Position numbers and translations under genes: made by a program. A stretch of 62,926 nt of DNA, counting the filler, from Circinaria calcarea (Eukaryota), in NCBI GenBank assembly GCA_051942165.1. It is 7 parts of 7 records of this genome, joined end to end, with 100 filler letters (N's around TTAATTAATTAA, not from the genome) between each part and the next. Parts side by side here need not be neighbours in the genome. Positions count along the whole stretch, not along the records: positions 45,031 to 53,930 come from JAVECS010001028.1; 6 more parts are not named here. The stretch is one strand, 5' to 3'. This document shows positions 8,912-60,927 of the stretch, piece after piece. The notes beneath the pieces were generated by a model, which was not told the origin of the DNA, did not search any database, and saw only the letters and a list, made by a program, of their open reading frames with translations. How positions within the stretch are numbered: the first letter of the stretch is position 1; the number at the start of each line of letters is the position of its first letter.

Positions 8912-9011
8912 NNNNNNNNNNNNNNNNNNNNNNNNNNNNNNNNNNNNNNNNNNNNTTAATTAATTAANNNNNNNNNNNNNNNNNNNNNNNNNNNNNNNNN
9001 NNNNNNNNNNN
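8912..9011. other. Artificial contig spacer (N44-TTAATTAATTAA-N44)
   Basis: Linker with stops in all six frames, repeated identically six times in the window. Confidence 0.99.
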
Positions 9012-9579: not shown

Positions 9580-10683
9580 TTGGTCTCGCCAATTAGCGCT
9601 CCCTTCATATCGATGAAGGAATTGCGTTTTCCACTCTTCCTGCATATTATTCGACCTTCTAATCCTTACGAATCGGGTACCTAGGTAACCATAAATAACC
9701 AAAGACCTACTTGGCGGTTGGGTACCTGCTACATGTCGTAACATTTATCTGGATTTTTTTGTAGCACGAGCTTTAGTAGAGTTTACTGTACACGATTCGT
9801 CCCTCCCCTTCATCCTTCCCTTCAAGGCGGGACGTCCATTCCCTCCAATAGTCCCCCATGTTTGCTCGTTTGAATGTCCATGAACATGCCTACTAGCCCT
9901 TGATGATACAGAATAGAGACAAACGCGTCTGCCTCACGAGGAATATCCCCAAAAACCCCTGATGAAACTTCCCGTCTTTTCCCCGGAGAATGTCTCGCAC
10001 TCAGTTTTGGCTAGACGAGACTGAGATTAGAACCTCATTCATGCTGCTATCAGAACCTCATCACATGCTGTTGCTTCATGGAGAGAAAAACAAAACAGAA
10101 CCGATTGGTAAAACAAAAACGCACGGACGCCGGTTTGAAATGCAAGAAGGCCAGAAATGGCAGACTTTTTGGCGGGACGGTTGAGAAATGGTAGTATCCC
10201 CGAGGATATGCAAGATAGTGGAGTCGATAACGATTCTGAAGATGGACATCTGAATCCGGTCCGAGTTTTCAAAAGGCGCAAGGCGTATCCATTGTCATGA
10301 TGGATCCGAAATTCCATCAATTGGCATATCAAATCTGCTCGCATCGTGTTTCTATTCATGTTGCCATGAAAGCTGTACAAAGCCAAGGGTGATACTCCGA
10401 GAGAGCGTACCAGATGCTACCAACAGCCCACCGCAAAGCAGGTCGTAAAAATCTGTACCTAGTGCTGATAATGATACAATAGCGAATTCTCCAATTAGCA
10501 CAATCAATATCGTCATAGTGGTGACCAAATCTCGAAGTTGTTGGATTAGGGCTATCCAAGCCAAAACCGTCTCCAACAGATAGGTCGCTTCCCCTAAAAA
10601 CCCACATCGATCAAGTTGAACGATGCGCTCAATATGATCCCACGGAGCATGATAAGCCAATTACCTGAAGTGGTCTCTTAAAA

Positions 10684-17920: not shown

Positions 17921-18020
17921 NNNNNNNNNNNNNNNNNNNNNNNNNNNNNNNNNNNNNNNNNNNNTTAATTAATTAANNNNNNNNNNNNNNNNNNNNNNNN
18001 NNNNNNNNNNNNNNNNNNNN
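17921..18020. other. Artificial contig spacer
   Basis: N44-TTAATTAATTAA-N44. Confidence 0.99.
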
Positions 18021-20074: not shown

Positions 20075-20767
20075 TTGCAACTGATAAACCAGCGACAGAC
20101 CTATATTGGGTCCTGCACAGCCACTCCCATGTCTAGCAGGATGAAGCCACTTTGGTTTTATCCAAGCAGTAATGGAATACTCTTCTTTAATTATTGCCCT
20201 AATTTGTTGTCGATTGAGAATTCCATTATGTCCGCCAGGATAGACACGCTGCAAGACAGCATGGCCCAGGTAAAGCGCGAGCAAGAACTGCTTAGACGCA
20301 GCCATCAAAGCCTTCAATGCAGCCATCAGAACCTTCAAGGCAGCCATCAGAGCCTTCAATGCAGCCATCAAAGTCTTGCAGCTTGGAAGGTGGAACACTC
20401 GGCGTGGCACCACGATGTGTTTATCCGTGATGTCCTACGTCTGTTGATTATGCGCCGAACCCCTCGTGTCGAAGATGAGCTCCTGTCTTTGACCCCTAAG
20501 CCACCTGGCGCAGTTTCGAAAGAAATCCAGGCCTCGTTCCAGCGCCATAGAAGCGCCGTCAACCGCGGGGTCCACAAATGGACCTTGGCAGGCCTGTTGG
20601 CTGTACTGGAGTTTCAGCATGACGGCCTTATCGGACCTTGGATCCGCGCGTCTAATCCTGGCATTGCCACCGTGTCCCACCAGGAAGCCGTCAAGTTACT
20701 ACTTAACGTTGACTGGGATGTGGCCCACCAAATCCTGGGTGCGTGTACACGAAAAAACGACGACTAA
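20075..20767 (+). CDS. Hypothetical protein with a heptad (SHQSLQC-like) coiled-coil repeat; true start may be the ATG at about 20228
   Basis: 230-codon open frame; 21-nt tandem repeat x4 at about 20298-20380. Confidence 0.5.
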   Translation: MQLINQRQTYIGSCTATPMSSRMKPLWFYPSSNGILFFNYCPNLLSIENSIMSARIDTLQDSMAQVKREQELLRRSHQSLQCSHQNLQGSHQSLQCSHQSLAAWKVEHSAWHHDVFIRDVLRLLIMRRTPRVEDELLSLTPKPPGAVSKEIQASFQRHRSAVNRGVHKWTLAGLLAVLEFQHDGLIGPWIRASNPGIATVSHQEAVKLLLNVDWDVAHQILGACTRKNDD

Positions 20768-26924: not shown

Positions 26925-27024
26925 NNNNNNNNNNNNNNNNNNNNNNNNNNNNNNNNNNNNNNNNNNNNTTAATTAATTAANNNNNNNNNNNNNNNNNNNN
27001 NNNNNNNNNNNNNNNNNNNNNNNN
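26925..27024. other. Artificial contig spacer
   Basis: N44-TTAATTAATTAA-N44. Confidence 0.99.
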
Positions 27025-27418: not shown

Positions 27419-29079
27419 TTACTCCTTCCGAATGACAACCCTCATACCCTTACTGTCCAACCGCGGCGCCGTCGTGAAAAAGTCATGCCTGACCTGCACG
27501 TCCGTTTCAAAGTCCGTCTCGAAAAGCTCCATCGTGCGCCCGAAATTCCGAAAAACGGCCGCCAGGGTATGGTAGAATTCGGCATAGGCCAGATTGATCC
27601 CGACACACTGGCGGGTTCCCTTACCGAAGTTGAAGAGGTACTTGGCCTTTTCCTTAGCGTCGGGGCCGAGCCAACGCTCGGGAAGGAAGGTATGCGGGGA
27701 AGGGAAAATGGACGGGTCGTCGTGGATGAAGAGGGAGGTCATGCCGACGGCGACGCCGGGTGGGATGACCCAGTCGTGGTATTGGAGGGCTTTGTCGGGG
27801 TGCACGCGGGAGAGGCGGTGAACGGTGCCGTAGGAGATACGTAAGCCTTCGTTGATGATAGCCGTGAGGTAGGGCAGTTCCTCCAGCTGGGCGAGCGTTG
27901 GCATCTCCGATGGTTCGGGAATCAGGGGTTCGAGCTCGGCAAGGAGTTTCTCGAGGACGGGCGGGTTCGCGAGGATGTGATAGGTTGTGGAAAAGAGCAT
28001 GTGCGCGGATGTAAGCGTGCCGGCACCGACGAGGGATTGGGCTTCTGTGACGAGACGGTCGAGGCGTTTTTCTACTGGCGGAATCTTGGGGTCTTCCGTT
28101 AGAGAATGGAAGACTGTCGCGTGTGAAACGTTCGCATGGCCTTCTTTGCCTTCGGTCGAAAGGATTGAGCTGATATATTTGCCGTAGCTAACACGTTGTG
28201 CGCGGAGGAGACCGGCCAGCGGGTTTACAGTTCGGACGAACCAGTCTGGAAATAGATTCATGGTGGGAATCATGTAGGGGAATTGCTTGATACTGGAGTA
28301 ACTGATTAGTTTCTCTTTCGGCCATGGCTCACGTGACGTTCCAACTTACGTATGTGAGAGCTCCGAGGGTTCCTGGACGAGATCATACGAAGCCGGATCG
28401 AAGTCAGGTTCGAAAAGAGCATTCTTGCAATTTGCAAAGCAATACTCCGTGATGATGTCGTGGGTCAAGGCAGCATAAGCGTGGACCATGTTAGCGGGCT
28501 GCCCAGACTCTTGATACTCTCTTAGCCTTTGGCAAAGATTGCCGACAATCTGCTGGATGACAGGTTCCAGGCGCCGAATCGAAGCTTTGGAAAAGAAGGT
28601 GCTGAAGCCGTTCCGACGGAGACGATGAAGCTCATGGCCAATTGTACCAAAAGCCATATCGTTACTTGCAAACATTCCGGCAGACCATTGTGGCTTCTCT
28701 ACGTTCTTGGCAACGCTCGGATACAGCTGATTGAGGAATGCGGGATCGCTAACATGGAGCTCATATGGGTTGATGCGTACTATATCGCCTAACAAAACAT
28801 CTGGTCAGACGGGATTTCGAGTCGCAAACTTCACAGCATACCGTATTTTTCGTGCATCGTCTTGATTTCCCACACATACTGCCCCCGTTTCTTAACATCG
28901 TAGTAGAATTCATACCAGTAAGTTGCAGCTGCGAGCTTCGGACCCGGGAATTTGGCTAGAGGACTGAAATAGAGTCGATACACAAGGCCGTAGATACCGT
29001 ACAAGATATACAACAGAATCACAGCGGCCGGGGTAATGACACCCAATGGCGCCGAAAACACATACTCAGTCAAAGTCAT
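27419..29079 (-). CDS. Cytochrome P450 monooxygenase (trichodiene oxygenase/CYP58-like group), 3 exons
   Basis: N-terminal TM helix, [45 protein letters not shown] (I-helix), EGLR (ExxR), [14 protein letters not shown] (heme-binding Cys). Confidence 0.93.
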
Positions 29080-35928: not shown

Positions 35929-36028
35929 NNNNNNNNNNNNNNNNNNNNNNNNNNNNNNNNNNNNNNNNNNNNTTAATTAATTAANNNNNNNNNNNNNNNN
36001 NNNNNNNNNNNNNNNNNNNNNNNNNNNN
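35929..36028. other. Artificial contig spacer
   Basis: N44-TTAATTAATTAA-N44. Confidence 0.99.
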
Positions 36029-39547: not shown

Positions 39548-41840
39548 ATGCCGATTTCGACCCAAATTTCGCTTTCCGTAGAGCTTGTGAAACTCGCACA
39601 GCATCTACCTCTACCTGCCACCATCAGTGCTCTTATCAGTTCCGTTCGTGACTTCAAGCGTTCCAGCTCCGACTTTCTAGTAGAAGAAGATTTGATGGCA
39701 ATCTTTGGTAGAGGCAGAGTCGTGCGGTCGATGGAAAACCACTTTCGCGATGTCATCAAAGCCGCCTCGATTGATCCTCCGTCTCCGCTCTACTGGGAAG
39801 CCGACATTGTTCTTGATGCGGGTGCTGGTCCTACTCTGCGCCGGGCTTTAAGAGATGGCCATTCCTATATGGCTACTGTCATTCAACTCTCGTTCTTGGG
39901 ATCAATGCATGAAGAAACTACTCTCGCGGCGACGTTGACCGAGTGCATGTTTAATCGCTATGAGAAAGGAGTTCAGGATGCCACCCCTGATCCCGATTAT
40001 GCTGGCGTTTTGGGGACTCTACAAGCTTGTACCAGCCAGACTTGCCAATATCCTTGGGAAGTGCTAATAGCACTCGTTGAAAGCAAATTCCCTCAATCAG
40101 CTCCATGGTTTCGAGCTTTTAAGAGTCCTTTGAATTCTCTTTCACCGAATTTGCTCCTTGGAGCTATGGATTATTTATATTTGGTTCAAAGTCTCCCAGA
40201 AGACCGTATCATGGTAGTAGAAAACCAGATGGGACTGGTACCAATCGCTGTGTGGGCACATTGTATACTCGGCCTTAGAGTTTTCGTAAAAGATAGTCCA
40301 GATGGAGATGTCAACCTCGGAACACCAGGAAATCCACAAGTCATTATCCACTGGTCTCAAAAGTGGGAACTGTATCCCGATCGCGAGTGGGAAATCAGAA
40401 ACTCATCCATTCCAAGAGTATACCTACTGGACGCGGGGATGGAAGTGCTTTTGGTAATGGAGCCTAATGATCACGAAGCGGTCAAGATAGAAGGACTAGA
40501 ATACCACCGCTTGAAAGGTTACGGCACCACCTTCCTTCGGAGACTTTTCAACAAAGAATCAATCGTCAATGATGATGATTCAATCTACGCTGAAGTTGCG
40601 CAGTATGTCATGGCAGTTGCTATTGTGATATCCAAATCCATGCATCGCATTCCCTTCAAGCGGGAGCTTGACCAGACGAAACAATATCTCGAGCAGTACT
40701 ATATGAAGATAGAATCTACGCGAATTCTTGAATCCGGTGGGCTGTTATTGTCAGGGATTGAATTCGACAGGAAGGGCGTCAATGGTTATGTTGAAAGGCT
40801 AACAAGTCTTGTGGTTAAAGATATGCCCGTTCCTCCAACTGTACAAACATTTATCGAGCGACCTAGAAGCAATTCCCATAGCAATAGACTTCTGCAAAAA
40901 TGCTATCCAGCTTGCATCCTGGATCATGATATTTTCCCGAGTTACTGATGTACAGTCGTGCTCTGACATGCCATTGATTTATGATTCGCAGAGGGCGAAT
41001 GGCGCGAGAATGGCCATTGGAAAGGTACTAATGCCTGAAGATTCAGACATATGGTTTGAGGATATTATGGCAATGATGCTAGGAGATGTTGGAGCATTAG
41101 CCATTCCTGAGAATCGTGACGACTATTTTCTTATCAGCCATAAAGGTTGGAGCATGTACCACAGTAACATCGGAGATGTTGATCCAGGAGGGGTGGACTG
41201 TGAATCGATATGCATTCGACGAGGCGTACCGACCAACTTGCGAACTAAAGAACGTAAGCTTGCGATCCTGGATGCGCCACGTATTTGGCCCAAACAAACT
41301 CACAAAGCTGCTGTGGTGGATAGGGGTGAATCATTCCTTCCAAGATGTGTTTCTCCGGTCATCAAACGTACAGAACTCTACAGCAGCCGCGGAAAAGTAT
41401 TCTGGCTATCTATTCGCTACGATATTGACGACCTAGAAAGTCTACAAGGATTCGGCAACAAGGGCAAATTCTCTATTTATACATCGTATCACCAACTTCA
41501 CGACGGCCTCTGTATGGCCATGAAGACCGAACCGTGCATGCATCACACACAGAACAGCAAGCTTGTGCAACTGAGCCTTGGCGTTGTGACAACTAAAGGG
41601 TTTGACTGGGTTAATTATGAGAGTATCGAAGAACGAATCTGTTTGAACCTGGTCAAGGGTGATTCCCGAGCCCGATGGGTCCTGCTGGGTGAACTTATCT
41701 TCAAGGGTCATCCTGTGGAGGTAGGGCGGGTTCACAGTCATCTGCAAAGAAGGGTAATGCTTCGGTGCAACAATTGCTGCGAAAACTGTGCTATCAAACA
41801 GGCCAGTGCAAGGGAGGGCAAATGGCTGATCATCTTGTGA
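39548..41840 (+). CDS. Fungal hypothetical protein (about 760 aa) split by a frameshift near 40850-40890
   Basis: Overlapping long ORFs 39548-40948 and 40809-41840 on the same strand; C-terminal CNNCCENCAI Cys cluster. Confidence 0.7.
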
Positions 41841-44930: not shown

Positions 44931-45030
44931 NNNNNNNNNNNNNNNNNNNNNNNNNNNNNNNNNNNNNNNNNNNNTTAATTAATTAANNNNNNNNNNNNNN
45001 NNNNNNNNNNNNNNNNNNNNNNNNNNNNNN
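44931..45030. other. Artificial contig spacer
   Basis: N44-TTAATTAATTAA-N44. Confidence 0.99.
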
Positions 45031-45412
45031 ACCCAGACGCTATATGGTCAGGGTACTATGCGTTTCTCCACAGAAGAGATCAGCTCGTTCAGGAAGCAGA
45101 TTTGGGAGAACCTGAATGCACTACTTATTGCGTCCAGATGTAAAAAGAAAGAGACTGGTACCGGTAGCGCAATATTTTGGGTGTTGGGAAGGAATGAACC
45201 TTCTGAAGCAGATACTGTTGTGTTCGGCTTTATTTGTTCTGCACTCGTCTGCACTGCGTAAGTAGTTTTCGGTGATTTGAGGTTTGTAACTTGCTGATAG
45301 CGTTTGCAGAGCGCCTGAAACTCGAAAAGTAGTGAAAAGCTTCCCGGTAGCGGTGGAGTATGCGCGAAGGATTCATGACCGTTACTTTCCGGAGTATATT
45401 CTCTGGGAGTAG
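45031..45412 (+). CDS. 3' end of a glutathione S-transferase-like (failed axon connections/metaxin-type) protein, 5'-truncated, one intron
   Basis: TLYGQGTMRFSTEEI..FWVLGRNEPSEADTVVFGFICSALVCTA|APETRKVVKSFPVAVEYARRIHDRYFPEY. Confidence 0.75.
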
Positions 45413-46355
45413 GTATGCAATTTACTAGAAACGACATGTAATCGAGATGGCGTCGCAGAAACACTTGCAACACTTAAAAAACAGCTCCGATTGTAAAAGG
45501 GATACTATTTACTCTAGCCCTCCCTATATATTCCTTAAAATTGCACCACTTGGATGACTATTATGTTAGAATGTGCAATAATGGCACGGTGCGAATGCGT
45601 TAATATCAATACAAATTGGTAGTATTCCATATATTCTATATAGAAGGAAGAAAAATGCGGGGCATAGCCTCTATATACCATAATCGTAGAGACAGTAGTA
45701 TTCGCGCATATAACATGGGTAATAAACCCTAAACCCTGCATATTCCATATGCGTGCTGTGTGTACGCTAAGCCATAGTAGCTTGAATCGGATAGTATTAG
45801 CCTGAATCGTGATATATTAAATACTTGGAATGAGATACCAAACCACGATCTGTATTTCTACAAACCTTATTACGACAACGTTATATATACCGTCACCACA
45901 CTCCTCCTTGAATACCTCTAAAAAACCAAGGGGCATTACTGCCTCCTCGGAGGCTCACGTCACTCACTTTCCCAATCTTGGCACAAGGATGTTTGCTGCG
46001 AGTCTCTGAAACTTTCAACGGAACACACGGAGGCAATCAGTTTCTAGAAACTACCGCCGGCCCGGAACTGGCAACGTACGAGCAAAAGGACAAGCAAGTC
46101 ACAGCTATACCACACGAGGCAGACGATCATCCACTGGCTCCCAGACTTGCTGCAAGTAAGAGAGTAAGAAATACCCAGCAAAGAATATGAGGAAACCACG
46201 TCTTGGCAGGGCTTACTTTACTCACCAGTCTTATTCAAGGCTGCCTCGCTATCAGTCTAGTACACGATAATAGTTGCCTCGATATTTGCTTTCCCTCCGT
46301 TGCTTTCCGTTACTCCGAGATGCTCCTTTCGTGGGGCAACAATCGGAATCTGCTC

Positions 46356-47845
<1,490 letters not shown>

Positions 47846-48666
47846 AGAGAGCCAGAGTACCCAGAGTGCCAGAGTTCCAGAGTTTCAAAAGGGTATATAT
47901 AGAAAAGAAACACTCCCAGGGCCCAGGGCCCAGTATCCCCTTGGAAAGGGTGTAGCGAAGAGGCTTTGTGGGTGAGGTGAAGGGGAAGGTGAAGGTGGGA
48001 TGGGAATCGGGAGCAGGGGTTTAGATTTTATGTGGGGACACAACTATCTAGAGGATCCGATCACCCGAATTCCATGATTTGAAAAGTATTTCTCGAAGGG
48101 GGGAAAAACAAAGACAAAGAAGGGGGGGGGGAAGAGTCTAAGATCCAGCCAAGCGGTACTTTTTCGGCGTGTACTTGTAGTCTGTCTAGTCGCGAGGTGA
48201 ACTCGGGGCATATGGTTAAACATTGTGAACTTTGTCCCTGGCGAAGATCCGCAACGAAAAAGTGCCTCGGAGCCGGGTAGTGAAGATGTTTCCCCCCCCC
48301 AAAAAAAAAAAAAAAAAAAGCAGAGGCGGGTAAAAATACTACGTCGACGAATGGATTGGGAGAGAAGCCCCATTGGGGAAGGAAGGATTAGACTATGGAA
48401 AAGCGGCTAGCTAAAACTCATGCGAGGGAGTTGGTAAGGACAGTCTGACCCAGCCGGTAGAAGGAAAAAACCCCCCGAGCGAAAAATGCAAGTTTCAATT
48501 TCAAAAAGGGGTCCCTTGACAGTAATTTTTTCCAAAATCAAAAAGACACTGGCAAATATCAATAGATTTTTTAAAAAAAAGCCTTGTTCAAGTAAAGGGC
48601 TCATATCAATTTTCCCCGGTCGCACCCCCGACTGTCATCTCCTCCACTCCAATTCGCTGCCGCCAT

Positions 48667-50148
48667 CTAAGCAGCCCATCTCTTGGCATATTTTCTAGAT
48701 CCGTGAGACTTCCCAGATCCGTCAGACTTCCCAGACCCATGAGACTTCCCAGACCCATGAGATTTCCCAGACCCATTAGATTTCCCACTCCCATGAGACT
48801 TCCCGCTCCCATGAGACTTCCCGCTCTTTCCGCTCTTCCCGCTCTTCTGGGAACCGTTTCCAGCTCCATGGCCGTAGTCGGGATATGTCACCGTAGCTTC
48901 GGCCTCAGCGTCGCGTGAAGCCAAGCCGAGCCATCGCAGTACATTGTTGCTTCCGCTGGGTTCAGCCTCAGCGTCTCGGGTGGCCATACCTCGTCGTGCA
49001 TAGTGCTTGCCACTCTTGTTGCTCTTGTCACTCTTATTGCTCTTGTGGCTATTGTTGCTACTGTTGCTCTTATGGCTCTTGTCACTCTTGTCACTCTTGT
49101 TGCTCTTGCCGCTCTTGCCGCTCTTGTGACTGATGGTGTCATATCCAGTTGGTTCAGCTTCAGCCTTAGCATCTCGGGTGGCCAAACTTCGTCGTACATA
49201 GTGCTTGCCACTCTTGTTGCTCTTGCCGCTCTTGTTGCTCTTGCCACTCTGGTTGCTCTTGCCGCTCTGGTTGCTCTTGCCGCTCTGGTTGCTCTTGCCG
49301 CTCTGGTTGCTCTTGCCGCTCTTGTTGCTCTTGCCGCTCTTGTCACTCTTGTTGCTCTTGTAGCTTTTGTGGCTGATGGTGTCGTATCCAGTTGGTTCAG
49401 CTTCAGCCTTAGCATCTCGAGTGGCCAAGCCTCGTCGTACATAGTGCTTGCCACTGTTTTTGCTCTTGCCACTGTCGTTGCTCTTGCCACTGTCGTTGCT
49501 CTTGCCACTGTTATTGCTATTGTTGCTACTGTTGCTCTTGTGGCTCTTGTCACTCTTGTTGCTCTTATCACTGTTGTCACTCTTGTAGCTCTTGTGGCTG
49601 ATGGTGTCGTATCCAGTTGGTTCAGCTTCAGCCTTAGCATCTCGGGTGGCCAAACTTCGTCGTACATAGTGCTTGCCGCTCTTTCCACTCTTGCCACTCT
49701 GCCCACTCTTCCCACTCTGCCCACTCTTTCCACTCTGCCCACTCTGCCCACTCTGCCCACTCTTCCCACTCTTTCCACTCTGCCCACTCTTGCCGCTCTT
49801 GTAGCTGATGGTATCGTATCCAGTTGGTTCGGCAGCGGGACTGCGAACCTTGTAATACTTCCAGACGGAACGTCTCAAAGCTTTCCCAGTAGGACTCAAA
49901 GACCGAATACGACGGTAGTAATGGTGACGGCCACTACTTTTGCTGCTTTTGCTTTTGTAGCTTTTGTGGCTTTTGTGGCTCCCTTTGCCTGTGGGTGATC
50001 TGCCGTTGAGTTGCGCAAGATTACGCTCGGTCAATGCTAACGCGGGACCCTCGGCCACATCGGCATTGGCGTTAGGAGTAGCAGCCGGGAGAGCAGAGAC
50101 GCTCATGGACATAATAGCCGCAACGGCAGCAACCTTGGTGAAACGCAT
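48667..50148 (-). CDS. Secreted Kex2-processed repeat protein (KEP), 493 aa; precursor of Ser/Lys-rich tripeptide-periodic peptides
   Basis: Signal peptide MRFTKVAAVAAIMSMSVSA; repeated module R-DAKAEAEP-TGYDTIS-(xxS)n-GKHY(V/A)-RR; terminal KR; intact intronless ORF with an upstream TATA box. Confidence 0.9.
   Translation of the reverse strand: MRFTKVAAVAAIMSMSVSALPAATPNANADVAEGPALALTERNLAQLNGRSPTGKGSHKSHKSYKSKSSKSSGRHHYYRRIRSLSPTGKALRRSVWKYYKVRSPAAEPTGYDTISYKSGKSGQSGKSGKSGQSGQSGQSGKSGQSGKSGQSGKSGKSGKHYVRRSLATRDAKAEAEPTGYDTISHKSYKSDNSDKSNKSDKSHKSNSSNNSNNSGKSNDSGKSNDSGKSKNSGKHYVRRGLATRDAKAEAEPTGYDTISHKSYKSNKSDKSGKSNKSGKSNQSGKSNQSGKSNQSGKSNQSGKSNKSGKSNKSGKHYVRRSLATRDAKAEAEPTGYDTISHKSGKSGKSNKSDKSDKSHKSNSSNNSHKSNKSDKSNKSGKHYARRGMATRDAEAEPSGSNNVLRWLGLASRDAEAEATVTYPDYGHGAGNGSQKSGKSGKSGKSHGSGKSHGSGKSNGSGKSHGSGKSHGSGKSDGSGKSHGSRKYAKRWAA
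48690..49830 (-). repeat. Nested coding repeats: 9-nt (AAGAGC/AAGAGT-NNN) and 18-nt units inside four to five modules of about 180-240 nt
   Basis: On the + strand, (g/a)ctcttgcc / gctcttgtt 9-mer arrays separated by a near-identical linker (gtatccagttggttcagcttcagccttagcatctcg). Confidence 0.95.
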
Positions 50149-50309
50149 CTTTGCAGTAATTGGTTGGTTAAGATGGGTAAATACAGGTGGTGGTAAGAGA
50201 TGTGACGATTAGTGATAGCGTCCTTGAGAGAACAGTAGAGTATTGAAGAACGTGGGGGAGTTGGACAGAAGGCACGATGGGAAGAATGAAAAACGGGGAC
50301 AGCAGGCAG

Positions 50310-50317
50310 TTTATATA
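50310..50317 (-). promoter_or_regulatory. Putative TATA box of the KEP gene
   Basis: TATATAAA on the minus strand about 160 nt upstream of the ATG, followed by a pyrimidine-rich stretch. Confidence 0.55.
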
Positions 50318-53300
50318 GACGGTTTCCCCTCGTGGAGTAAAAGTTCGAATTGCTTCAGCTTTCTGTTTTGCCGGACTGATGGTGTCCTCGAATAGCAGCC
50401 AAAGCTATTCCCCGCATTGAATCCATGCCTAGATCCCTTGTTTCAATAAAGTGTATCCCACAAGAACCAAATCAACCATGGTAGGGAGTTGTCTACATCG
50501 AGATGTATCGGGTAGAATTGCAGCTGCCTTAGGAAGCCAGAATTCTAGGCTGATGACTAGCCTAATAGTAATGACGCCTTTGCACCACGGGCCCAATGAT
50601 GTTCGAGCTCCTGACACACATTACCCCGTAACTTGTATCTATAGTGGGCGGAAGTACCATCAAACCACTCGCTTCCCATCAATCTCACAGGAGTCGTGTG
50701 ATCAATTGCCAAAAACAGTCGACGAGTTAAAAGTAGAAAAACCATGACAGGGGTTACCACGAAGAGAACTTGATTTGGTGCAGGAATGTTGTAATGCGTC
50801 CTGCAAGAGTTATTGGCAGTGAAGGCGGTGCACTAACGTGGTCCAACGACCATGGTTTGAAGGAAACTATGACTGAGAAGAATCGGGGAAAGTTTGTTCC
50901 TACCATTAGAAGCCATAGAAAGACCGCAGAGATCCCGTTGGGTATCGGCGGTGATGGCAGGAGGTGAAACATGTGCAAACCGGAGCTACACCATGACAGA
51001 GCCATGTAGAGCAAGGCCGAAGGCATAAGAGCGGTAAAGATTTGTAGAACAACACTTGGGAAACGCTGAAGCGGTCTCGATCGACACATGCTCTTCGAGG
51101 TCCGCATGTTTCCCAGATCCAGGGCACGAGTCCCAATCCAAAGCTCCCTCTTCAGCCACCGACTCTCGTATATGTAATAGTGCGATGGCGTTGGGAGAGG
51201 CGCGGCGGAAGCGAGCGGACACTTGAAAGGGAAAGGAGGAAGAGGCAGGAAGGACGACTAAGCCACGAGAATGACACGCGTCAGACAGCGTGATTGCCTA
51301 GCTCCGACGCATTCAGCAAGCCAGTCTCAGCTGTTACCCGTATCGTTGGGAGACCTGATCCGGCCCCGATGAGATGATGCAAAGGCCAGATTCTGCCCAG
51401 AGGGAAGAGGCGTACCGTAGTACTACTATGATCAGAGTATGGGGTATAGCCGCCAAACAGGCTGATGGCCTAAGTAAGACCTACCACAGGCACAACAGCT
51501 TGGCGTTATAGCTCAAGGCTGGTGCATTTTTTGAGTTTCTCCACACTTTGGCATTACTGCTCTGGCATTACTGCTCTGCCCTTCTCCTCTCTCCATCCTC
51601 TCCCTTCCAGCCATAACGATCTGATTTCCCAAACTTTAAGGCGGACTTTGGCCCGTCCAAAGGTGCGAGCAGCCGGATCGGCGATTGGTACTGAGGTCTG
51701 TTGGATTGGTTTACTGTTCGTTTCCCCGCACCGCGTGCTTGGCGTAAGCGACCAAGAGGAGGCCTTGATCGAAGTCAGATTGGATACTCGCAAACCATCA
51801 CCCCTTCTGAAGAGGTTGAATACGAAGTACTTAGGTACACGGAAAATAATCGATAGTTGCTGCATATAATACCGCGCTGCATGCCTCCTGCATAAATCCA
51901 GAGCCTGAAACAAGAAAGGAAGCGGAGAAGTCGGGAAGTTACCTAATTGGGAGTCACACCTTCGCTAGCTTCTCACTCCCGCAGTCTCTTCCTGCTCCAC
52001 GCTTCAGCCATGCCTACTCCGGACACCACATGGTTATCAAATGACGTATTTCCCATACCGAGTACACAGACACGGATAGAACCGATCCATTTCCGTAACC
52101 ATGAGCGGAACTGAGCCTCGGTGTCAGACTGTGCCCACCATGAGGCAGCTTCGTCCATAATAGAGAGTCGCGATGGTGAAGCCGGTCGGTGGTTGCAATC
52201 TTCTGATTACCGTATAGCATAATACTTGGCCGGAATCGGCGAGTCTGCTCTGCTGCCAAGCACAACCATGTGGGTGGGCTGCAACAAATCCGGGCTTGGA
52301 CTTACCCTCCCTCGCGTCTTTACCCGCTATTACCAAACCATAACACGTGCCGCCCCGACGTCCCTTTCCAGCCCGTCTCGAAGGCGATCTCAGGACACCA
52401 TTTGGATCAGGCGATAGCTGAGTAAAGGCTCGCCTGGGTACGCGGATGTTAGGCGTTGGTGAAGAGAAGGAGGAGTGTAAATATAATCGCTCAGACGCGC
52501 TGCTGATCCCACTGATCCATACCTTGGGGGTTTGACGGGACCAATGATGTACAGTAGTAGTAGCAGCTCGACCTGGCTAGTAAGTACGTACTAGGGTCGA
52601 GAGCCTAATCATGCCACTCCCGCTTCGACTTGCGGTTCAACCCAATCCCGAAAGTCAAACCTCGAGTCACGTGCCTCAATTTGACCGACCAGATTTGTAA
52701 AGATCGCCATGAAGAGGCCCGAATACAGCAATGCTACAGAGAGTACCAAGTCGGTATGACAGTTCCATCACAGTTGAACCCTTTGACATGACATGACTGT
52801 CATCTCTGTCATGGTTTTATCCACTGAGCTTGGTGTACAGCTGAGGCGATTCATATTAATCATTCAAAGTTTGAGTCTTGGTTGAACTGCCAACACCGGA
52901 TTTGAGCGTTGATACGGAGAAAGTGGGAAGTTATTCTTGTATCTTCTATCTAGAAAAAACCCTCGGCTGATTTCTGGGGTTTAAAGTTCACGTATCATCA
53001 AGGCCGAGAACTTCGAGTGCGATAACGAAATTCCGGCACAAACCAGCCCCCCTGATCTTAGTGTACATGCCCATGATAATTTGTGAAACCCCCTCTAACG
53101 TTGTAGGTTGAGGGCAGCAAACCTTAGGCTATTGGTCCGTGCAAGGGTCTTTCCGTCAGCGGGCTAGAATTCGGATGATGTCGACTTTGCTTTTCTCACT
53201 GCGCGGCATGTCTCCTTCCTGCGTTACGGATCCCTCCAATACACACTCTTGGTCCCCCCAACACACCAGCTTCACAAACGGTTATCACCACCGCTCTCTC

Positions 53301-53784
53301 CCATCGTCCATCTTAGTCGCTGGCCTTGCAGCACCTGTGGGGTAAGGCCCCCACCTCGTCGTTCCGAGCGCGCTACTGCTGGACGGGAGAACCTGCCTGC
53401 TCGGTAGATCGAGGGCGAATTAGGTTCGGTCCCAGGTCGAAAGCTATGACTGTCATGCTCGCCCCGACTTCGAGACCGTGTCTGCAGCAATAACATTGAT
53501 TAATGGATGACTTACTCCTACTTCGGGGCAGGACTCCTTACCCCGTATTTTCGCGACTCTCCAGCGGAACCGCATAACAGCAACCGATGAGGCACAACAT
53601 CGAATGAGGTGATAGCTGGTGCCAATAGAGCGCGTTCAAGCATTCCCAACCTATCAGTACGCCTTCAGTCGTCATTCTCGTAGAGGGAATCACATCTTCC
53701 CGGCGCATCTGATCACCGCCCGTTGAAAATCCGCAGGTTCTTTGAACAACCCAAGTGCCAGAAGCGCCTGGAAAATCGGACAAG

Positions 53785-53930
53785 ATGTCTCTGGAGTCCG
53801 CCCTTGATGAGGAGCGGCGGGAGGTCATGGACATACTGGAAGGACGTTCAACTCAGGTGCGGGCTCCGTCGATCAATCAGAGCGCTCGAACTTCTAGCCC
53901 AGTTCCGCCGATTCGCAGTATGCTAGATAT
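53785..53930 (+). CDS. N-terminus of a probable fungal universal stress protein (Usp) domain protein, truncated by the contig edge
   Basis: MSLESALDEERREVMDILEG...SPVPPIRSMLD resembles the N-terminus of filamentous-fungal Usp-family proteins; the Usp domain itself is not in the window. Confidence 0.55.
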
Positions 53931-54030
53931 NNNNNNNNNNNNNNNNNNNNNNNNNNNNNNNNNNNNNNNNNNNNTTAATTAATTAANNNNNNNNNNNNNN
54001 NNNNNNNNNNNNNNNNNNNNNNNNNNNNNN
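53931..54030. other. Artificial contig spacer
   Basis: N44-TTAATTAATTAA-N44. Confidence 0.99.
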
Positions 54031-54744
54031 AACAACGTAACGCATGGATGACAGGTCCAGGCCCATCTCAACTTGAAGATGCAGGAACCTTCCTGGGGTG
54101 GCAATGACGATATCTGGATTGCCTGCCATGAAACTGAATTGTTCTTCAAGACTGTCTCCTCCAACAAGCAACACGCACTTTAGATCCGTTCCTCTCCCCA
54201 GCTCTTTCACCACCTTGAGAGTCTGTAGCGCCAATTCCCTTGACGGTGATAATATTAGAGCCCTTGCCCCGACCTTGGCACTATGGCCCTTTAACTTTTC
54301 AATCATGGGTATCACGAATGCTGCCGTTTTCCCCGAGCCTGTCCTTGCCATGCCGACCACATCTTGCCCGTCCAAAACCATAGGTATGGTCTTTCGTTGT
54401 ATAGGGGTAGGTACCGAAAAGCCTTTTCTTGTGATGGCTTTGAGAAGGTTTGCATTCAAGCCCATTGCCTGAAACCCCCCGCCTTTTTTCACACTCCTGC
54501 CCTTGACATTGGATGCTTTGCGGTTCGAAGCAGCTTGCGTCGCGGCAATGAAATCTGCGTCGTCTGAACCGCTTTCAAAAACCAAATCTGGCATTCCTTC
54601 GCCGGTGTGCATTCGTGCTTTTCGATCTGGGTGCTGGGTATCAACGCCATCTTCGGATCCTGAATTACCAACATTGTCAAATAGAGCCTGTGATATGTCA
54701 AATTCGTTCTCTGAAGCCGCAGGAGAGGGCGCGCGATGAGGCAT
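54031..54744 (-). CDS. DBP10: ATP-dependent DEAD-box RNA helicase Dbp10, 3'-truncated
   Basis: [53 protein letters not shown] (Q motif), [41 protein letters not shown]. Confidence 0.95.
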
Positions 54745-55163
54745 CTTCAGTATCAATGAGCGACTTCAACCATCCGTCGTCCTTGCTCGATACGACTTTC
54801 AATGAATTCAGAAATATAGAAGCGAGAACTGTGAGTTTTGTTCCTTCAAAGATCCATGCAATTCCACCCTACTGGTCTTAGGGCTGATCTCACTAGCTTA
54901 GTGGCTGATTATCTTTCCGGCCTGCCGGTATGGCGCGTAATCAATTAACAGGGGTACACGTCCCAGTAAGGTTTCAACGCGGACCCTCTGAAAAGTCACA
55001 GACAAGTTGCAGCCTAAGAAAACAGAGCATCAAGAGACCCTCATATCTCGAGACAGCTTCAGATTTTTGTCAATCCTTCTCAATCACCATCACTGGGCTT
55101 TTGCCACAAAGAGCACGAAGACTTCTTCGAATCAGCTGAACCGCTGAATTGCGGGGAAACAAG

Positions 55164-56164
55164 ATGGGTCCGTAAAAACAGCCTGTTATCAGATACCAAT
55201 AATCTGACTCCAGGCAGATTACAACAGCTACGGGAACGCTCAATACACCACCACCACCTCTTATGGCGCGCAAGGTGGAGCCGGTGGTGGCGGCTTCATG
55301 GGCGGTTCTCAAAGCGGCAGCCAGCAAAGTCCCGCAGGAAGGGTAAACAAACCCTTTCTCCCCCTTTCCCCCCAATTTTCTAGCACGTACAAACCCAATC
55401 CCAATCCCTAGGGCACCTACGGCAAAGATACCCTCCGCCCCGTCACCATCCGCCAAGTCCTCAACGCCTACCAGCCCCACCCAGACGCCGAGTTCAAGCT
55501 CGACGACGTCGAAATCACCCAAGTCACCTTCGTCGGCCAGATCCGCAACATCAGCACGCAAACGACCAACATCACCTATAAGATGGACGACGGCACCGGC
55601 ATCATCGAAGTGAAGCAGTGGATCGACTCCGACGCCACGACGTCCCTGTCCAACCCCTCGGACGCCTCCAAGGCGAAACTCGAAACCGACGGCTGGGCAA
55701 GGGTGTGGGGGAGACTGAAGTCGTTTAGCAACAAGCGCCATGTAGGCGCCCATGTTATCAGGCCGGTGACGGATAAGAATGAAATCAACTACCACCTCCT
55801 CGAAGCGACCTACGTGCACCTCTACTTCACACGCGGACCTCCGGAGCAATTCTCCTCCGACTCCAATCCCAACGCCGCCCAACCAGGCCCGAACCAATAC
55901 GGCCAAACCGACCCCTACTCGGCCAATACCAACAACCAAGGCACCAACAAACTCCTGCCGCAAATGAGCGTCGCCGCCCGGCGCGTCTACGAAGTCTTAC
56001 GCACGAGTCCGCAGAACACTGAAGGCCTGCACACGCAGAACATCGCCGCCACGCTGGGCATGGGCATGGCCGACGTGATGAAGGCCGGCGACGAGCTACT
56101 GAGTTTCGGCCTCATGTACACGACCGTGGACGATAGCACCTGGGCGGTCATGGACGGCTTATAA
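55164..56164 (+). CDS. RFA2: Replication protein A 32-kDa subunit (RPA2), 3 exons
   Basis: MDY..GAQGGAGGGGFM..|..KDTLRPVTIRQV, VTFVGQIRNIS, DDGTGIIEVKQW, NEINYHLLEATYVHL, C-terminal winged helix YTTVDDSTW. Confidence 0.93.
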
Positions 56165-56728
56165 TTTTTTTCGGGGGGGGGTTTATCCTGAGTGGTGTAA
56201 GTTGGAGTGATTTAGCTTACGGGTGGCAGCAGCGGCGGCGGCGGGATGAGATCTGTCGGTCGGTCGCTATGTGTATGTGTCAATGAAATGAAATGAAATC
56301 GAATGAGATAAGATGAGCTACGAATTGGGAACCTAGTTGAGGAAGTGTATGCAGAGCCAACAGGAAAGTATTCCTCCCCTTTCCCAACCCGAGGGCGCGG
56401 CGCAGGATCAATTCCCGTTCGTTGGTTGGTACTTGTAAATAGGAGAAGCCTCGATTTCAGATCTTGACCACTTGCAAAAAAGGGACCTCAAGACCCGAGA
56501 AATGAAATGAAACAAAACAAAACAAGCTAACGCCTATAGATATATATATCACATAGGCCGAGAATTCTTTAAAAGCTGGCTGCGAAATAGATCTTCGGGT
56601 TATAGTGAGTTTTTTTGTCTTGTGCAAGAATGTCCAATAGCCAATAGAATAGGATAGAATAAAATTTGCACTTGGTCCCCACCCAGCCTTCTTCCCCTTT
56701 TTCTATTCTGCGGCTCCCCTCCAAACAT

Positions 56729-58126
56729 CTATTCCGCATATGCCAAATACACCTCCAAGCCCTTCTCACTCTCGAGCTGCAATTCCTGGCCCGGCCCGAC
56801 AAAAAACACAAAGCCCTCTTTAATCTCCCACTCCTTCCCCTCCGCCCTCAGCTTCCCTTTCCCCTGGGTCGAAAACAGCACACTCGGCCCCCCAATCGCC
56901 TCGACGACCTCCGTCTCCCCCTCGCCCAAACACGTCCTCAGCATGTTAAACTCGCTCATATCCGGTTGATAGACGACCGTCTTGCCGTGCTTCCCCTTGT
57001 CGCTCTTTGTCGGCTTCAGCAAGGCTTCGTCGACCGAGTGCGGGACAAAGGTCATGGCGGAGGTGAACAGCTCGATGTTGTCGCGCTCGGCGCGGGGGCA
57101 GAAGCCGGTATTGAGGACGTTGTTGGAGCGGGCCATGCATTCGACGATGTCGCCTGAGAGGTAGGCGTGGGGGGAGTCGGTGGGAATGAAGATGGCGTCG
57201 CCGGCGGAGAGGGTCATGAAGTTCATCATACTGTGGGAAGGGGGGTTAGATTAGCCAGGTGGATGTTATGAGTAGGAGGAAGGATGAGAGGGGATGACGC
57301 ACAGGAGGGCGACTAGGTTTCCGGGGTCCTCTTTGGAGTATTGCTTCTGCAGGCGTGGGAGGAGATCCAGGATGTAGGCTGCTTGTCCTAGTTTCTCTTT
57401 TGGGATTTTACCCAACTTCTCCTGGGTTTCGGCAATGGTCTCGTCTGAAGCTTCGAGTATCGCCTGGCCAATATGCCTCAAAGTATCGTTATTAAACGGG
57501 TCGTACTTCTCTGGGAGGAACTGCTGCAGAGACTCCAATCCGAACACGGCTTCGATGTCCTTTTTTGGCTTCCATCCCGCAAAAACTTCGAACTTGCTTA
57601 AGGCAATGGCTATTTCAGGCTTGTGATTGGTATCCGTAAACTTCTCCGGGTCTTTCTTGTGCAACTTTGCAGAAAGCTCTTTGTCCGGGTGAATCTGTAG
57701 CGGAAGCGCTTTTGCGATGGAGAGAATCTAATGAAGATTGTGTCAGATCGGAAGACCCTAACCATTTCAATCGTGGAAGATCGTACCTTGGGTAAGAATG
57801 GCAATACTCCCCCGAACTTCTCTATACACTTCTTTCCGAGTAGTTGCTCCTTGTTCTCGTCAATCACTTTAGGCAATTCCTCTTTTGTCTCGAGGACTTT
57901 GGCCGGCAAGACGGGATAATCCCCCATCCACATCTCGGCATACTCCTTGGATTCCTCAATCTTGAAGCCCGTGTTGGGCGTTTGAGCGCACAGACGAGCA
58001 GAAAGTGATTCCTTTCCCTTTTTTCCCCATGGATAGTTCTATCTAATTAGTCAGGAAAGTCGAGTGATACGAGATGGAAGTACTTGCGTTGCATGAACAT
58101 GCAAGTTGCATCACTGAGGGAGTCAT
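56729..58126 (-). CDS. Type I mannose-6-phosphate isomerase-like protein (divergent paralogue), 4 exons
   Basis: NYPWGKKG, YAEMWMG, LPFLPK|ILSIAKALPLQIHPDK, DTNHKPEIAIAL, PHAYLSGDIVECMARSNNV. Confidence 0.9.
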
Positions 58127-58773
58127 GATAAGATCGCTCGAGTACCGAAAATTTCAATGAGACAAAGAGGACTAATTGAAGTAGAGTGATGCTAATGTTC
58201 TTTCGAACGAAAGAAGACGGCAAATTATTCACACACGACCGAAACAAGAGGGACCGCTTTCAATGACTTCATCCTGGACAATTTGCGGTGACGTAGATGC
58301 TTTAGAGATAATGGTCGAGGTAGATTCATTTGATGATCCCCTATGACGAATATACGCAGAAATAAGGTAGCCGTTATGCTCCATCACTCATTGGTGTTTT
58401 ACGTATGTCCCAATAACATCAAGATAGGTAGATCTTGAAGTCTCATGTGGTTTGGTGGGCCACCGCAGAATCAACGAAAAGATCAGCCTTATGGTAGGCG
58501 AGAGGTTATCGCGCCTATTCCGAGACTGGGAAGGGGGGGCGAAAATGGAACGTCTGATGTACGATAGATTGTTATCTAGAAACGCTTCGAGTAGGTGAAT
58601 TAACTCGGTTTATTCCACTACGCCTAAAACAGCCATGGATCTATTATCATTGTGAACCTCATTTGAATACGCCGACTGCCTGTGATGTCTCCAATCCACA
58701 TTTCACCAGCGTTAATTTTTCTTCAGTATCCGAGGGGCATAGTAGCTACAACGGAACATGAATTGCCTCCGAA

Positions 58774-60927
58774 TCACGCGTCTGCATTCCTCTTGGCCGC
58801 ATCTTCCACAGACCTATTCCAGTTAGTCTTGTATAGGAATACACTCTCGATCGCAGCAACTCTATCCAGTATGGTTAGTATTCAATTCACGGGCGCGCGT
58901 CTCCATGTCTGAAGTCGGACAGAACTTACAATCCCAATGCTACGGCAACCCCTCCCCATAACCCATGCAATCCCCACCCCAGCCCGAATGCAGTTCCCAT
59001 ACTAATCGGCACGCCAACAGCATAGTAGCAGAACAGCTGGACCCAACCTCCTATCTCTTGTCTCCCCAAGCCCCTCAGTATCCCATTGCAATTCGCGGCC
59101 AGTGCGTCGAAAAGCTGAAATGTGGCGCAGATAGGGAGCACGTCAGCAACGATGGCAATAACCTCAGGGTCGCTGGTCAGAAGGCGAGGGAAGTAATGAC
59201 GCAACGAGGACAGTAGGATGACATTAAAGATCCCGACGCCGGTCGCTGCAATGAGACAGACTTTCGCACTTGTCTTGGCTGCATCGGTGAGTGTGGCACC
59301 TATAAGATTTGCTATTCGCGTACTAGCAGCGATAGAGATAGGGAACGGAAGCTGGAAAGTAAGAGCGATTGCTGTAGAGAGGATACTCTGGGAAGCAAGA
59401 ACAGTGGTGCCAAAGTAGGAGGAAGCAAGGGTAAGTAACTCGAAGGCTAGATATTCGGCTTCAACCATAAGGAGGCCGGGAAGGGCAAGACGCACCATGG
59501 GCCCCCAATTCTGAAATGCTCGCCGGGTGAAACCTGGCCAGCAGGCAGAACCCGCGACAAAGCGGACATAGAGGAATAGAAGGATGGGAAGAAGATTGTC
59601 GGTTATGGCGACGGCAATAGGAGCGCCAACAAAGCCCCATTTAAATTGCTATTGTTGATGTTAGCACAAAACAAGATTGATGACTCAATATGAACTAGAT
59701 GCGGCTTACCCAGACAAAAAGCCAATTCAAAAACGCGTTAAAGGGAGCAGCAATCAGGAGTACGTACAAAGCAGCGGAGAACAGACCTTGTGCCTGTACA
59801 TAACGCTTACCACTTTCAAAGCAGGCATATCCCGGTGCGCCGATGAACACGACCTTGAGGTACTGACCAGCTAATATAGCGACGTCTGGTTCAGGTACTA
59901 TGCGGATCAAGATAGCTTCTGCACTGAGCCATATAATCCCTATCGGGACGCTAATGACCCAGAGGAAATAGATCATCCTTTGCATTTGCAACCCGACCAA
60001 CTTCTTGCGGCCCGAACCGTATGCTTGCGAACACAACGTATCCAGACTCGTGGCAAGTCCCTGATATATTGCATATCCTGTGATATTCGCAGTCATACTG
60101 GCCAAACTGACTGCTGCGAGCTCAGAGGTACCTAAGTGGCCAACGGTAAAGATGCTGGCCACCGTGAGCGAGTACTGGAGGAGAAAAGTGACAATGAGCG
60201 GCCCTGAATAACGGGCTAGGACCTTGGCCTCTCGTTGCCAAGTGGTGCGTATTTTTCCTGCTGCAACAGCTTCCTCCCACCTTTTGTTCAGTGTCTCTGG
60301 AGTATCCTGCCCACCGTACGGCAGTGCCGGGTCGCCTAATAGGGGCGTCGTCTCTGCCGCACCTGATACGGGGTTCTCCATAGCTTCAACAGCTGCGTCT
60401 TCATCAGGATGGACGACCTTTCTGTCACCCCCGGGAATACCCACCGCAGCTAAATGCCGATTTAATCGACTGCCGATAGTATGTGACCCCTTCTGTTGTT
60501 GAGGATGTTTGGGAGGGATGACATTATTGTCTCGGAGCAGGCTTCTTTCTTCTCTTCTAGCTTCGTGTCTTTCTGCCTTTGTCGGGTGTCTGTCTGACCC
60601 GATTAGGCTCGGCACTATCGTCGCTCTAGGACCTGCGGTCGCAAAGCTTGGCTGTCTATATGAGCCTTCCATCGAGTGGCTAAACGACGTGCCAGCTTTA
60701 CCTGGGCGTATCGTGGAGGCTTCTGAGTCCGACTCATCATCGTTGTCTGAATCTTCGATAGGATTGTCAGGGTCAAGATCCGGTTCTGCTTCCAGATCGC
60801 GAGCTATTGAAGCTTCAGCCACCGGCGACCTTCCTGATAGAATCCCATCGTGAGATCGGCTTCGAGTTTGCCATAGGCGGCCAGGCCTCATGTGTCGACT
60901 AGAATTCGAGGGAGTAAAGCTGGTCAT
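58774..60927 (-). CDS. MATE-family efflux transporter (Erc1-like), 3 exons
   Basis: QYSLTVASIFTVGHLG..ELAAVSLASMTANITG, GLATSLDTLCSQAYGSG, LALPGLLMVEAE, STRIANLIGA, GILRGLGRQ; about 12 TM segments; stop TGA 58774-58776. Confidence 0.93.

Follow-up and report, generated by a model that had tools for sequence, protein, structure and literature searches.

A gene for a predicted Kex2-processed repeat precursor with long polycationic cores in Circinaria calcarea

An open reading frame with a conserved cleavage grammar

The window analysed here is a stretch of 62,926 nt from Circinaria calcarea (assembly GCA_051942165.1), which strings together seven contigs of ~8.9 kb in order of decreasing length; each of the six joins is a 100-base linker, made up of N runs on both sides of a 12-base tag. 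On the piece comprising positions 45031-53930, an open reading frame (ORF) on the minus strand (50148→48667) extends without interruption over 493 codons plus stop. According to our analysis, this is a real, selected gene of a small, apparently undescribed family, whose predicted product is built like a Kex2-processed repeat protein (KEP). A first-pass annotation had already proposed a Kex2/Kex1/Ste13-type precursor from an uncharacterised fungal family. The first part of this proposal gains support from a cleavage grammar kept across relatives, the second from the fact that no named family was matched in Pfam, PDB or ESM Atlas.

The encoded precursor is predicted to be disordered, contains 21.5% Ser and, as had been stated, lacks Cys over its entire length. 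The signal peptide suggested by the first-pass annotation was recovered at aa 1-19 with hydropathy as a proxy: a basic n-region followed by a hydrophobic core is present in 7/7 N-termini examined (best 9-mer mean of 2.2-3.2 within the first 30 aa). No further hydrophobic stretch or membrane anchor was seen by inspection of the 493-aa protein. The translation contains the four TGYDTIS modules described before, the first behind SPAAEP and three behind RR-(S/G)LATR-DAKAEAEP, each ending in GKHY(V/A)RR, as well as the fifth unit (TVTYPDY...KYAKR) and the N-terminal His/Tyr unit. The predicted cores are longer than the 45-60 aa originally estimated, namely 51-70 aa (Table 1). At the DNA level, 9-nt and 18-nt tandem units are nested in a larger 225-nt repeat, and the 81-nt spacers of repeats 1-3 are identical at 76-79 of 81 positions, which suggests that the units arose by recent internal duplication. 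The leader between a TATA-like box and the ATG is pyrimidine-rich, and the ATG has an A at -3.

Seven sequences of the family share one plan: a core, Y-x-R-R, a 5-residue linker ending in aliphatic-x-x-R, two to five X-Ala/X-Pro dipeptides, and then the next core. At least two such dipeptides follow 27 of 83 Arg sites, as opposed to 1/83 when the register is moved by one and 1.7 expected from composition; across the family the dipeptide number changes in whole steps, with the register kept. The run sits behind a second, monobasic site and not behind RR itself. At +2 from RR we found Leu at 8/15 sites and Val, Met or Ile at the remaining 7, and Arg occupies +5 in 12/15 sites, by which the aliphatic residue becomes P4 of a second Kex2 site. 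In the expanded Kex2 motif, as described, P4 is Leu or a different aliphatic residue and P2 is tolerant (PMC8528282). Since the monobasic site in front of the dipeptides fits this motif, we propose a second Kex2 cut behind aliphatic-x-x-R. The cores contain 190 Lys and 4 Arg, the remainder of the sequences 79 Lys and 117 Arg, an Arg scarcity that is expected if cores avoid cleavage.

In-silico cleavage at KR/RR gives 8 fragments, where the KEP criterion of Le Marquer asks for at least 4 (PMC6339444). By inspection, three of them are (S/G)LATR...GKHY fragments of 75, 81 and 66 aa, corresponding to 3x66/493 = 40% of the protein (the criterion being three or more alike, with 15% or more of the protein). 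As judged from its sequence, the protein thus falls within the computational definition, bears the Ste13 signature and is a Kex2-processed repeat protein. We regard the architecture of the precursor as solid. The Kex2/Kex1/Ste13 maturation pathway is established (PMC9769878), and from what is known of it, secretion and processing of the precursor are very probable.

Relatives, selection and genomic surroundings

Three homology searches and an exhaustive phmmer search yielded seven 90%-identity clusters (P0002, P0004/P0153, P0005, P0006, P0011, P0022 and P0154), to which a metagenome scan added the locus L001, so that about eight relatives are at hand. The word-based homology searches scored only 8000 candidates each, so that more remote members could have escaped. 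In P0011 and P0022, the frame seems to be lost behind the first part; P0011 was used for its first 116 aa only. The sole named relative, KAL8707395.1, comes from Loekoesia sp., a lichen-forming genus of the Teloschistaceae (Lecanoromycetes). The organism carrying the window gene is probably an ascomycete. A profile of the N-terminal part, built from 7 rows of matching sequences, matches 9/154 collected proteins. Most phmmer matches were discarded as low complexity: among the 23 read of 150 listed ones, 18 were non-family proteins with G-x-S or collagen-like repeats. The exact protein is absent from a collection of 15 billion proteins. With one N-terminal fragment as query, 0/246 candidate stretches in prokaryote genomes and 0/96 in viral contigs were related. 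The metagenome scan returned four loci, one of them true; L002-L004 were chance matches. L003 (~9950-11050, plus strand) encodes an unrelated, apparently bacterial secreted protein in which a GKSDKSDKS/GKWGKS-type run follows the signal peptide; this (xKS)n tract is convergent.

A small share of the gene's words recurs in five public runs, each of which carries the label biocrust metagenome. Four of them were examined, namely three RNA runs from a single study and a probable DNA run from a second one; they provided contigs ~92-97% identical to the gene (e.g. 357 nt with 10 differences, 1014 nt with 86), which span the greater part of the ORF and also its start region. Contigs of the three RNA runs do not reach into the flanks 47800-48405 and 50527-50800. 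The occurrence of close relatives in RNA libraries is compatible with transcription, without being proof of it. These contigs carry 191 differences, 40 of which are listed, 32 of those inside the ORF. Over the unique stretch of aa 1-111, 10/15 listed differences are synonymous versus 23% expected (P=4e-4), and the N-terminal part is under purifying selection. In the repeated part, 4 synonymous and 10 non-synonymous changes are among the listed differences, with unreliable mapping between near-identical units. Indels recurring in several runs measure 3 and 9 nt.

Could the ORF be a chance low-complexity frame or a non-coding tandem repeat? The 9-nt and 18-nt tandem units and two long overlapping ORFs in other frames would be in line with this. 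We consider it extremely improbable, as it is contradicted by the same reading frame being held in relatives at 43-74% identity, by L001, in which no other frame is open, by the synonymous excess and by the 3- and 9-nt indels. The overlapping ORFs, closed in L001, are by-products of the 9-nt periodicity.

We found no family in Pfam, PDB or ESM Atlas that explains the protein (with the N-terminal profile, nothing in PDB fell below E 0.07; ESM Atlas matches, all ≤0.81, are leads only), nor did our search of open-access literature turn up a description of one. A motif search in the supplements of two KEP catalogues was empty but uninformative, the Umemura table giving accessions without sequences and the sequence content of the Le Marquer supplement being unconfirmed. 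Among six lichen names searched, Umbilicaria and Endocarpon occur in the Umemura tables and Endocarpon in that of Le Marquer; none of the family matches was named from these genera. A survey of peptides made on the ribosome and modified after translation (RiPPs) in lichens sought precursors only inside two DUF3328 clans and found no conserved repeats (PMC12048977). In a collection of 7878 KEPs from 1345 strains, 2560 had no homologs (PMC7329392). New KEP sequences are thus common, and a new family is by itself ordinary. What makes this one notable are its long, disordered, end-capped polycations in place of short signals or toxins, a single named member from a lichen fungus, and near-identical genes in biocrust libraries.

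Table 1. Features of the gene and of the remaining window (positions along the joined stretch)
Feature	Position	Strand	Remarks
Whole ORF, predicted KEP-type precursor (P0001)	48667..50148	-	493 aa + stop; RNA-library contigs of relatives colinear across N-terminal third
TATA-like box TATATAAA	50310..50317	-	~160 nt upstream of ATG; read from sequence, putative function
Predicted signal peptide	50092..50148	-	aa 1-19; hydropathy proxy
Pro-region	49999..50091	-	aa 20-50, LNGR at end; mean identity to relatives 58%
N-terminal Ser/Lys/His unit ("unit 0")	49915..49998	-	aa 51-78, HHYY then RR; similar unit in six aligned relatives
SVWKYYKVR	49843..49869	-	aa 94-102, highest conservation; between ALRR and SP-AA-EP dipeptides
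Core 1	49663..49824	-	aa 109-162, 54 aa, net +8, 0 sequons
Spacer 1	49618..49662	-	RR / SLATR / DA-KA-EA-EP
Core 2	49438..49617	-	aa 178-237, 60 aa, net +5, 6 sequons
Spacer 2	49393..49437	-	RR / GLATR / DA-KA-EA-EP
Core 3	49195..49392	-	aa 253-318, 66 aa, net +13, 8 sequons
Spacer 3	49150..49194	-	RR / SLATR / DA-KA-EA-EP
Core 4	48997..49149	-	aa 334-384, 51 aa, net +8, 5 sequons
Long spacer	48895..48996	-	aa 385-418, RWLGL segment flanked by two dipeptide runs
Core 5	48685..48894	-	aa 419-488, 70 aa, net +10, His/Gly-rich, 2 sequons, then KR-WAA-stop
Overlapping ORF over repeats	48888-49667	-	259 aa
Overlapping ORF over repeats	49072-49998	+	308 aa
RadH-like flavin-dependent halogenase	46356-47835	-	~0.8 kb downstream of KEP gene; RadH match E 4e-47
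Arg/Pro-rich ORF	839-2128	+	429 aa; 72-nt tandem repeat at 1424-1583; no Pfam match
ORF with heptad repeat	20129-20767	+	212 aa; 21-nt tandem repeat; no Pfam match
Slightly overlapping ORFs	39548-41840	+	466 + 304 aa; no Pfam match; possibly one frameshifted or spliced fungal gene
Ordinary fungal genes on other contigs (Pfam)	11053-12990 (-), 27419-28273 (-), 54030-60927		DEP/RGS protein, cytochrome P450, DEAD-box helicase, RPA subunit, phosphomannose-isomerase-like, MATE transporter
Linkers	8912-9011, 17921-18020, 26925-27024, 35929-36028, 44931-45030, 53931-54030		genes on different pieces are not neighbours

The contig joins, like the 21 N-x-S sequons and the small conserved spacer peptides treated below, go beyond what the first-pass annotation had covered. 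On the contig of the KEP gene, Trp_halogenase was the one gene-fitting Pfam match above cut-off among 70 frames of at least 52 aa. The match to the halogenase starts at RadH residue 112, i.e. the first ~110 residues are missing, and several frame breaks are present; broken (pseudogene) and with no evident signal peptide, it was rejected as a partner of the KEP gene.

A dikaritin-type RiPP precursor, from which Tyr-containing ends would be excised and cyclised by DUF3328/UstYa oxidases and a tyrosinase, would share the KEP architecture and the Tyr adjoining dibasic sites, and lichen fungi are described as having many DUF3328 clusters for which a precursor is frequently missing (PMC12048977). 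The same 70 frames contain no DUF3328 match, and no credible HxxHC was seen; as the gene has just 3.6-3.8 kb of contig on either side, a more distant partner is conceivable. The cores are long and variable, the EDYXI motif is absent, and Ste13-type KEPs such as pheromones generally have no DUF3328 neighbours (PMC7329392). Taken together, a dikaritin seems highly improbable.

Predicted products and their possible role

Product statistics refer to 19 cores from six sequences. Across the family, cores are 26-70 aa long with a net charge of -1 to +16 and consist of 27% Ser, 22% Lys, 16% Gly, 6.5% Tyr and only 3.4% hydrophobic residues (ILVFMWC). Those of the window protein have an isoelectric point (pI) of ~10 and up to 6-7 His per core, His being left out of the net charges in Table 1. 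The density of KxxK pointed out earlier holds, with 3-10 per core and 36 in the protein. The claim that Ser occupies every third position is true of all five window cores, in which Ser keeps a single phase of three over 14-19 consecutive xxS triplets (0/5000 shuffles per core as high); it does not extend to the family as a whole. The strict pattern is strongest in the window protein, several relatives are looser, and L001 is partly built on 5-residue units. In L001 (2-1015, plus strand; both ends open), Tyr-Tyr-Pro4-6 blocks are followed by Ser/Lys/Gly repeats; the Tyr-Pro4-6 blocks recall plant extensin. Because the Ser periodicity meets Asn, 21 N-x-S sequons arise in the window protein; relatives have 0-3. 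AlphaFold2 gave no confident fold (mean predicted local distance difference test scores of 43.8 and 47.8 in two models, too poor for a fold search).

The aromatic residues are placed at the ends of the cores: Tyr/Trp occupies 27/152 N-end and 27/76 C-end positions, but 6/634 in the middle. Both ends carry Tyr/Trp in 16/19 cores, and an acidic residue is among the first eight in 19/19. The N-end enrichment (P=3e-15) is not attributable to Kex2 P4. Signal, pro-region and cleavage sites are conserved, and the cores differ in length and sequence. The family is thus held together by the charge, the hydrophilicity and the capped ends of its cores and not by an exact sequence or length.

We propose the following pathway. 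The signal peptide would take the precursor into the endoplasmic reticulum; in the late Golgi, Kex2 would cleave behind each RR/KR and, a few residues later, again behind aliphatic-x-x-R. Kex1 would then trim the basic pair left at the C-terminus, and the X-Ala/X-Pro run would be stripped by a dipeptidyl aminopeptidase of the Ste13 type. Predicted products are five unstructured peptides of 51-70 aa, one shorter N-terminal peptide and, from the spacers, small aromatic peptides. The long peptides start with an acidic/aromatic N-end and finish with a C-end Tyr, and the Lys/Ser/Gly/His middle between them is flexible and varies in length; the ends predicted for the mature peptides are exactly defined. 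The Lys-rich middle may bind polyanionic surfaces, such as cell-wall or matrix polysaccharide, walls of partner cells, or soil and rock minerals, and the aromatic ends could provide cohesion through stacking or oxidative cross-linking. Glycosylation, at the N-x-S sequons or as O-mannosylation of Ser, may tune binding or cohesion. A secreted, multi-copy polycationic linker of variable length with aromatic ends appears more material-like than receptor-ligand-like. As the most likely role we tentatively suggest an extracellular polycationic binder or cement with aromatic ends, to which we would assign a probability of roughly 40%.

Several observations weigh against such a binder. The C-end Tyr doubles as P4 of the RR site in 15/19 cores and may be kept for Kex2; Tyr makes up just 6.5% of core residues; the sequons are unconserved; and the highest conservation in the family is found in the small SVWKYYKVR piece rather than in the long cores. 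Core limits were partly set by dipeptide runs and dibasic sites, so that only the register test and the depletion of single Arg are non-circular. Moreover, no phenotype was reported when six KEPs were knocked out (PMC9769878).

The conservation just mentioned raises the question if the true products are rather the small aromatic pieces (SVWKYYKV and the WLGL segment), acting as signals or as Rep1-like self-assembling surface peptides, with the long Ser/Lys blocks as solubilising carriers. SVWKYYKVR has a mean identity of 85%, compared with 49-61% for other N-terminal segments, and predicted cuts lie on either side. The RWLGL segment is common to the window protein and seven aligned relatives, i.e. 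eight aligned sequences, and is the sole helix predicted in the relative P0154. For Ustilago, Rep1 peptides are described to assemble into amyloid-like fibrils (PMC9769878). On the other hand, multiple copies (2 to 5+; unit counts omit P0022, P0005 and P0004) are seen of the long cores and not of the small pieces, and the cores directly follow dipeptide runs. The Loekoesia member has lost the Trp as well as the KR site ahead of the equivalent of SVWKYYKVR, and the conservation could stem from a sorting or processing role within the precursor. We therefore regard this alternative as unlikely.

The charge of the cores would also suit a defence role, in which the cationic peptides keep bacteria, fungi or algae in check on thallus or crust by binding anionic walls, nucleic acid or metals, without forming pores. 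Histatin is a parallel for such peptides. The net charge of +5 to +13, the pI, the His content and the several copies per precursor are all in keeping with this idea, and characterised KEP peptides mostly serve biotic interactions (PMC9769878). Yet so few hydrophobic residues, a relative's core with a net charge of -1 and the masking of charge by any sequons in use speak against it; in addition, synthetic KEP peptides of another fungus, albeit different ones, are reported without antibacterial activity in the same paper. A defence role is thus possible, though we think it rather doubtful.

Alternatively, the protein could form a hydrophilic, glycosylated, disordered matrix that holds water or protects surfaces on drying, cleavage being incidental or partial. 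The 21 sequons, the high Ser content, the lack of a fold and the close relatives in biocrust libraries would fit; the 0-3 sequons of relatives do not, and the exact dipeptide register together with the capped ends favours defined peptides, which makes such a matrix quite unlikely. Ice nucleation was considered as well, a fungal nucleator of small subunits having been reported; the sequence offers no support for it.

Returning to the binder or cement, a more specific version would be that lichen-forming or biocrust fungi independently evolved silaffin/cingulin-like peptides, released by the mating-pheromone pathway, to which mineral particles and partner cells are bound or cemented; this we put forward as a speculative and rather unlikely scenario. 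To our knowledge, the molecular basis of the adhesion of such fungi to rock, soil grains and partners is poorly known. If the scenario were true, a peptide that glues or binds minerals where lichen and substrate meet would for a first time be defined genetically, and bio-adhesives or biomimetic silica could draw on a new scaffold of fungal origin.

Comparison with known systems

With KEPs of the Ste13-signature type, such as alpha-factor precursors, the window family has in common a signal peptide, repeats between dibasic sites and X-Ala/X-Pro in front of the cores (PMC6339444, PMC7329392). It differs in its low-complexity, polycationic cores of 26-70 aa, 9-24 aa being the commonest class in Dikarya, in the two-cut spacer (RR, then aliphatic-x-x-R) ahead of the dipeptides, and in the absence of a pheromone motif, of Cys and of a sequence match to a named KEP. 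In ascomycete alpha-pheromone precursors in particular, the cores measure 9-24 aa and contain either two Cys or a PYGxPxG-type motif, as opposed to the long, Cys-free window cores; there was no Pfam match to MF_alpha. Linear, minimally modified and fairly long Kex2-released peptides outside the pheromones are represented by Ustilago maydis Rep1 and Candida albicans Ece1 (candidalysin) (PMC9769878). Collagen was rejected: the Pfam Collagen match is limited to aa 119-158 and present in 1/11 alignment members, and there is no family-wide Gly-X-Y. Rep1 and candidalysin peptides are hydrophobic or amphipathic, in contrast to the hydrophilic cores of the window family.

The first-pass annotation had pointed to diatom silaffin-1. 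This likeness stands with respect to composition: in the Ser/Lys screen for silaffins and cingulins (criterion from PMC3820600), 367/394 windows pass. Silaffin-1 (Sil1p, R1-R7) and the cingulins also derive from a secretory precursor cut into Ser/Lys/Gly peptides with KxxK clusters, and Tyr/Trp-rich segments alternate with KxxK blocks (PMC4557024). The correspondence of RRSL/RRGL to the silaffin RRxL is better accounted for by P4 of the second Kex2 site. The window units are also longer (silaffin R5 has 19 aa including RRIL; PMC3820600), and compared with silaffin-1 and the cingulins, the protein lacks an acidic N-terminal domain, has N-glycosylation sequons and apparently carries Kex2/Ste13 spacers in place of RXL. 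No diatom-named match occurred in the homology searches that report names; a direct alignment to Sil1p or cingulins was not made.

A true silaffin analogue would consist of peptides, phosphorylated or polyaminated, by which silica or some other mineral is laid down or patterned where fungus and substrate meet; it appears very unlikely to us. Fungi are not known to have a secretory Ser kinase. The defining features of silaffins are phospho-Ser, methyl- or polyamine-Lys and association with biosilica, and silaffin activity at acid pH requires the unusual modifications (PMC4557024). The composition is unspecific, since simple Lys oligomers and lysozyme precipitate silica as well (PMC3820600). As far as can be judged from the sequence, the window protein would at most work like a silaffin or cingulin, the likeness being compositional.

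Among the systems compared, mussel foot proteins and plant extensins are Lys/Tyr/Ser/Gly-rich, disordered extracellular binders, to which we claim no homology; the window family differs from them by a far lower Tyr content and by its origin from a multi-copy Kex2 precursor.

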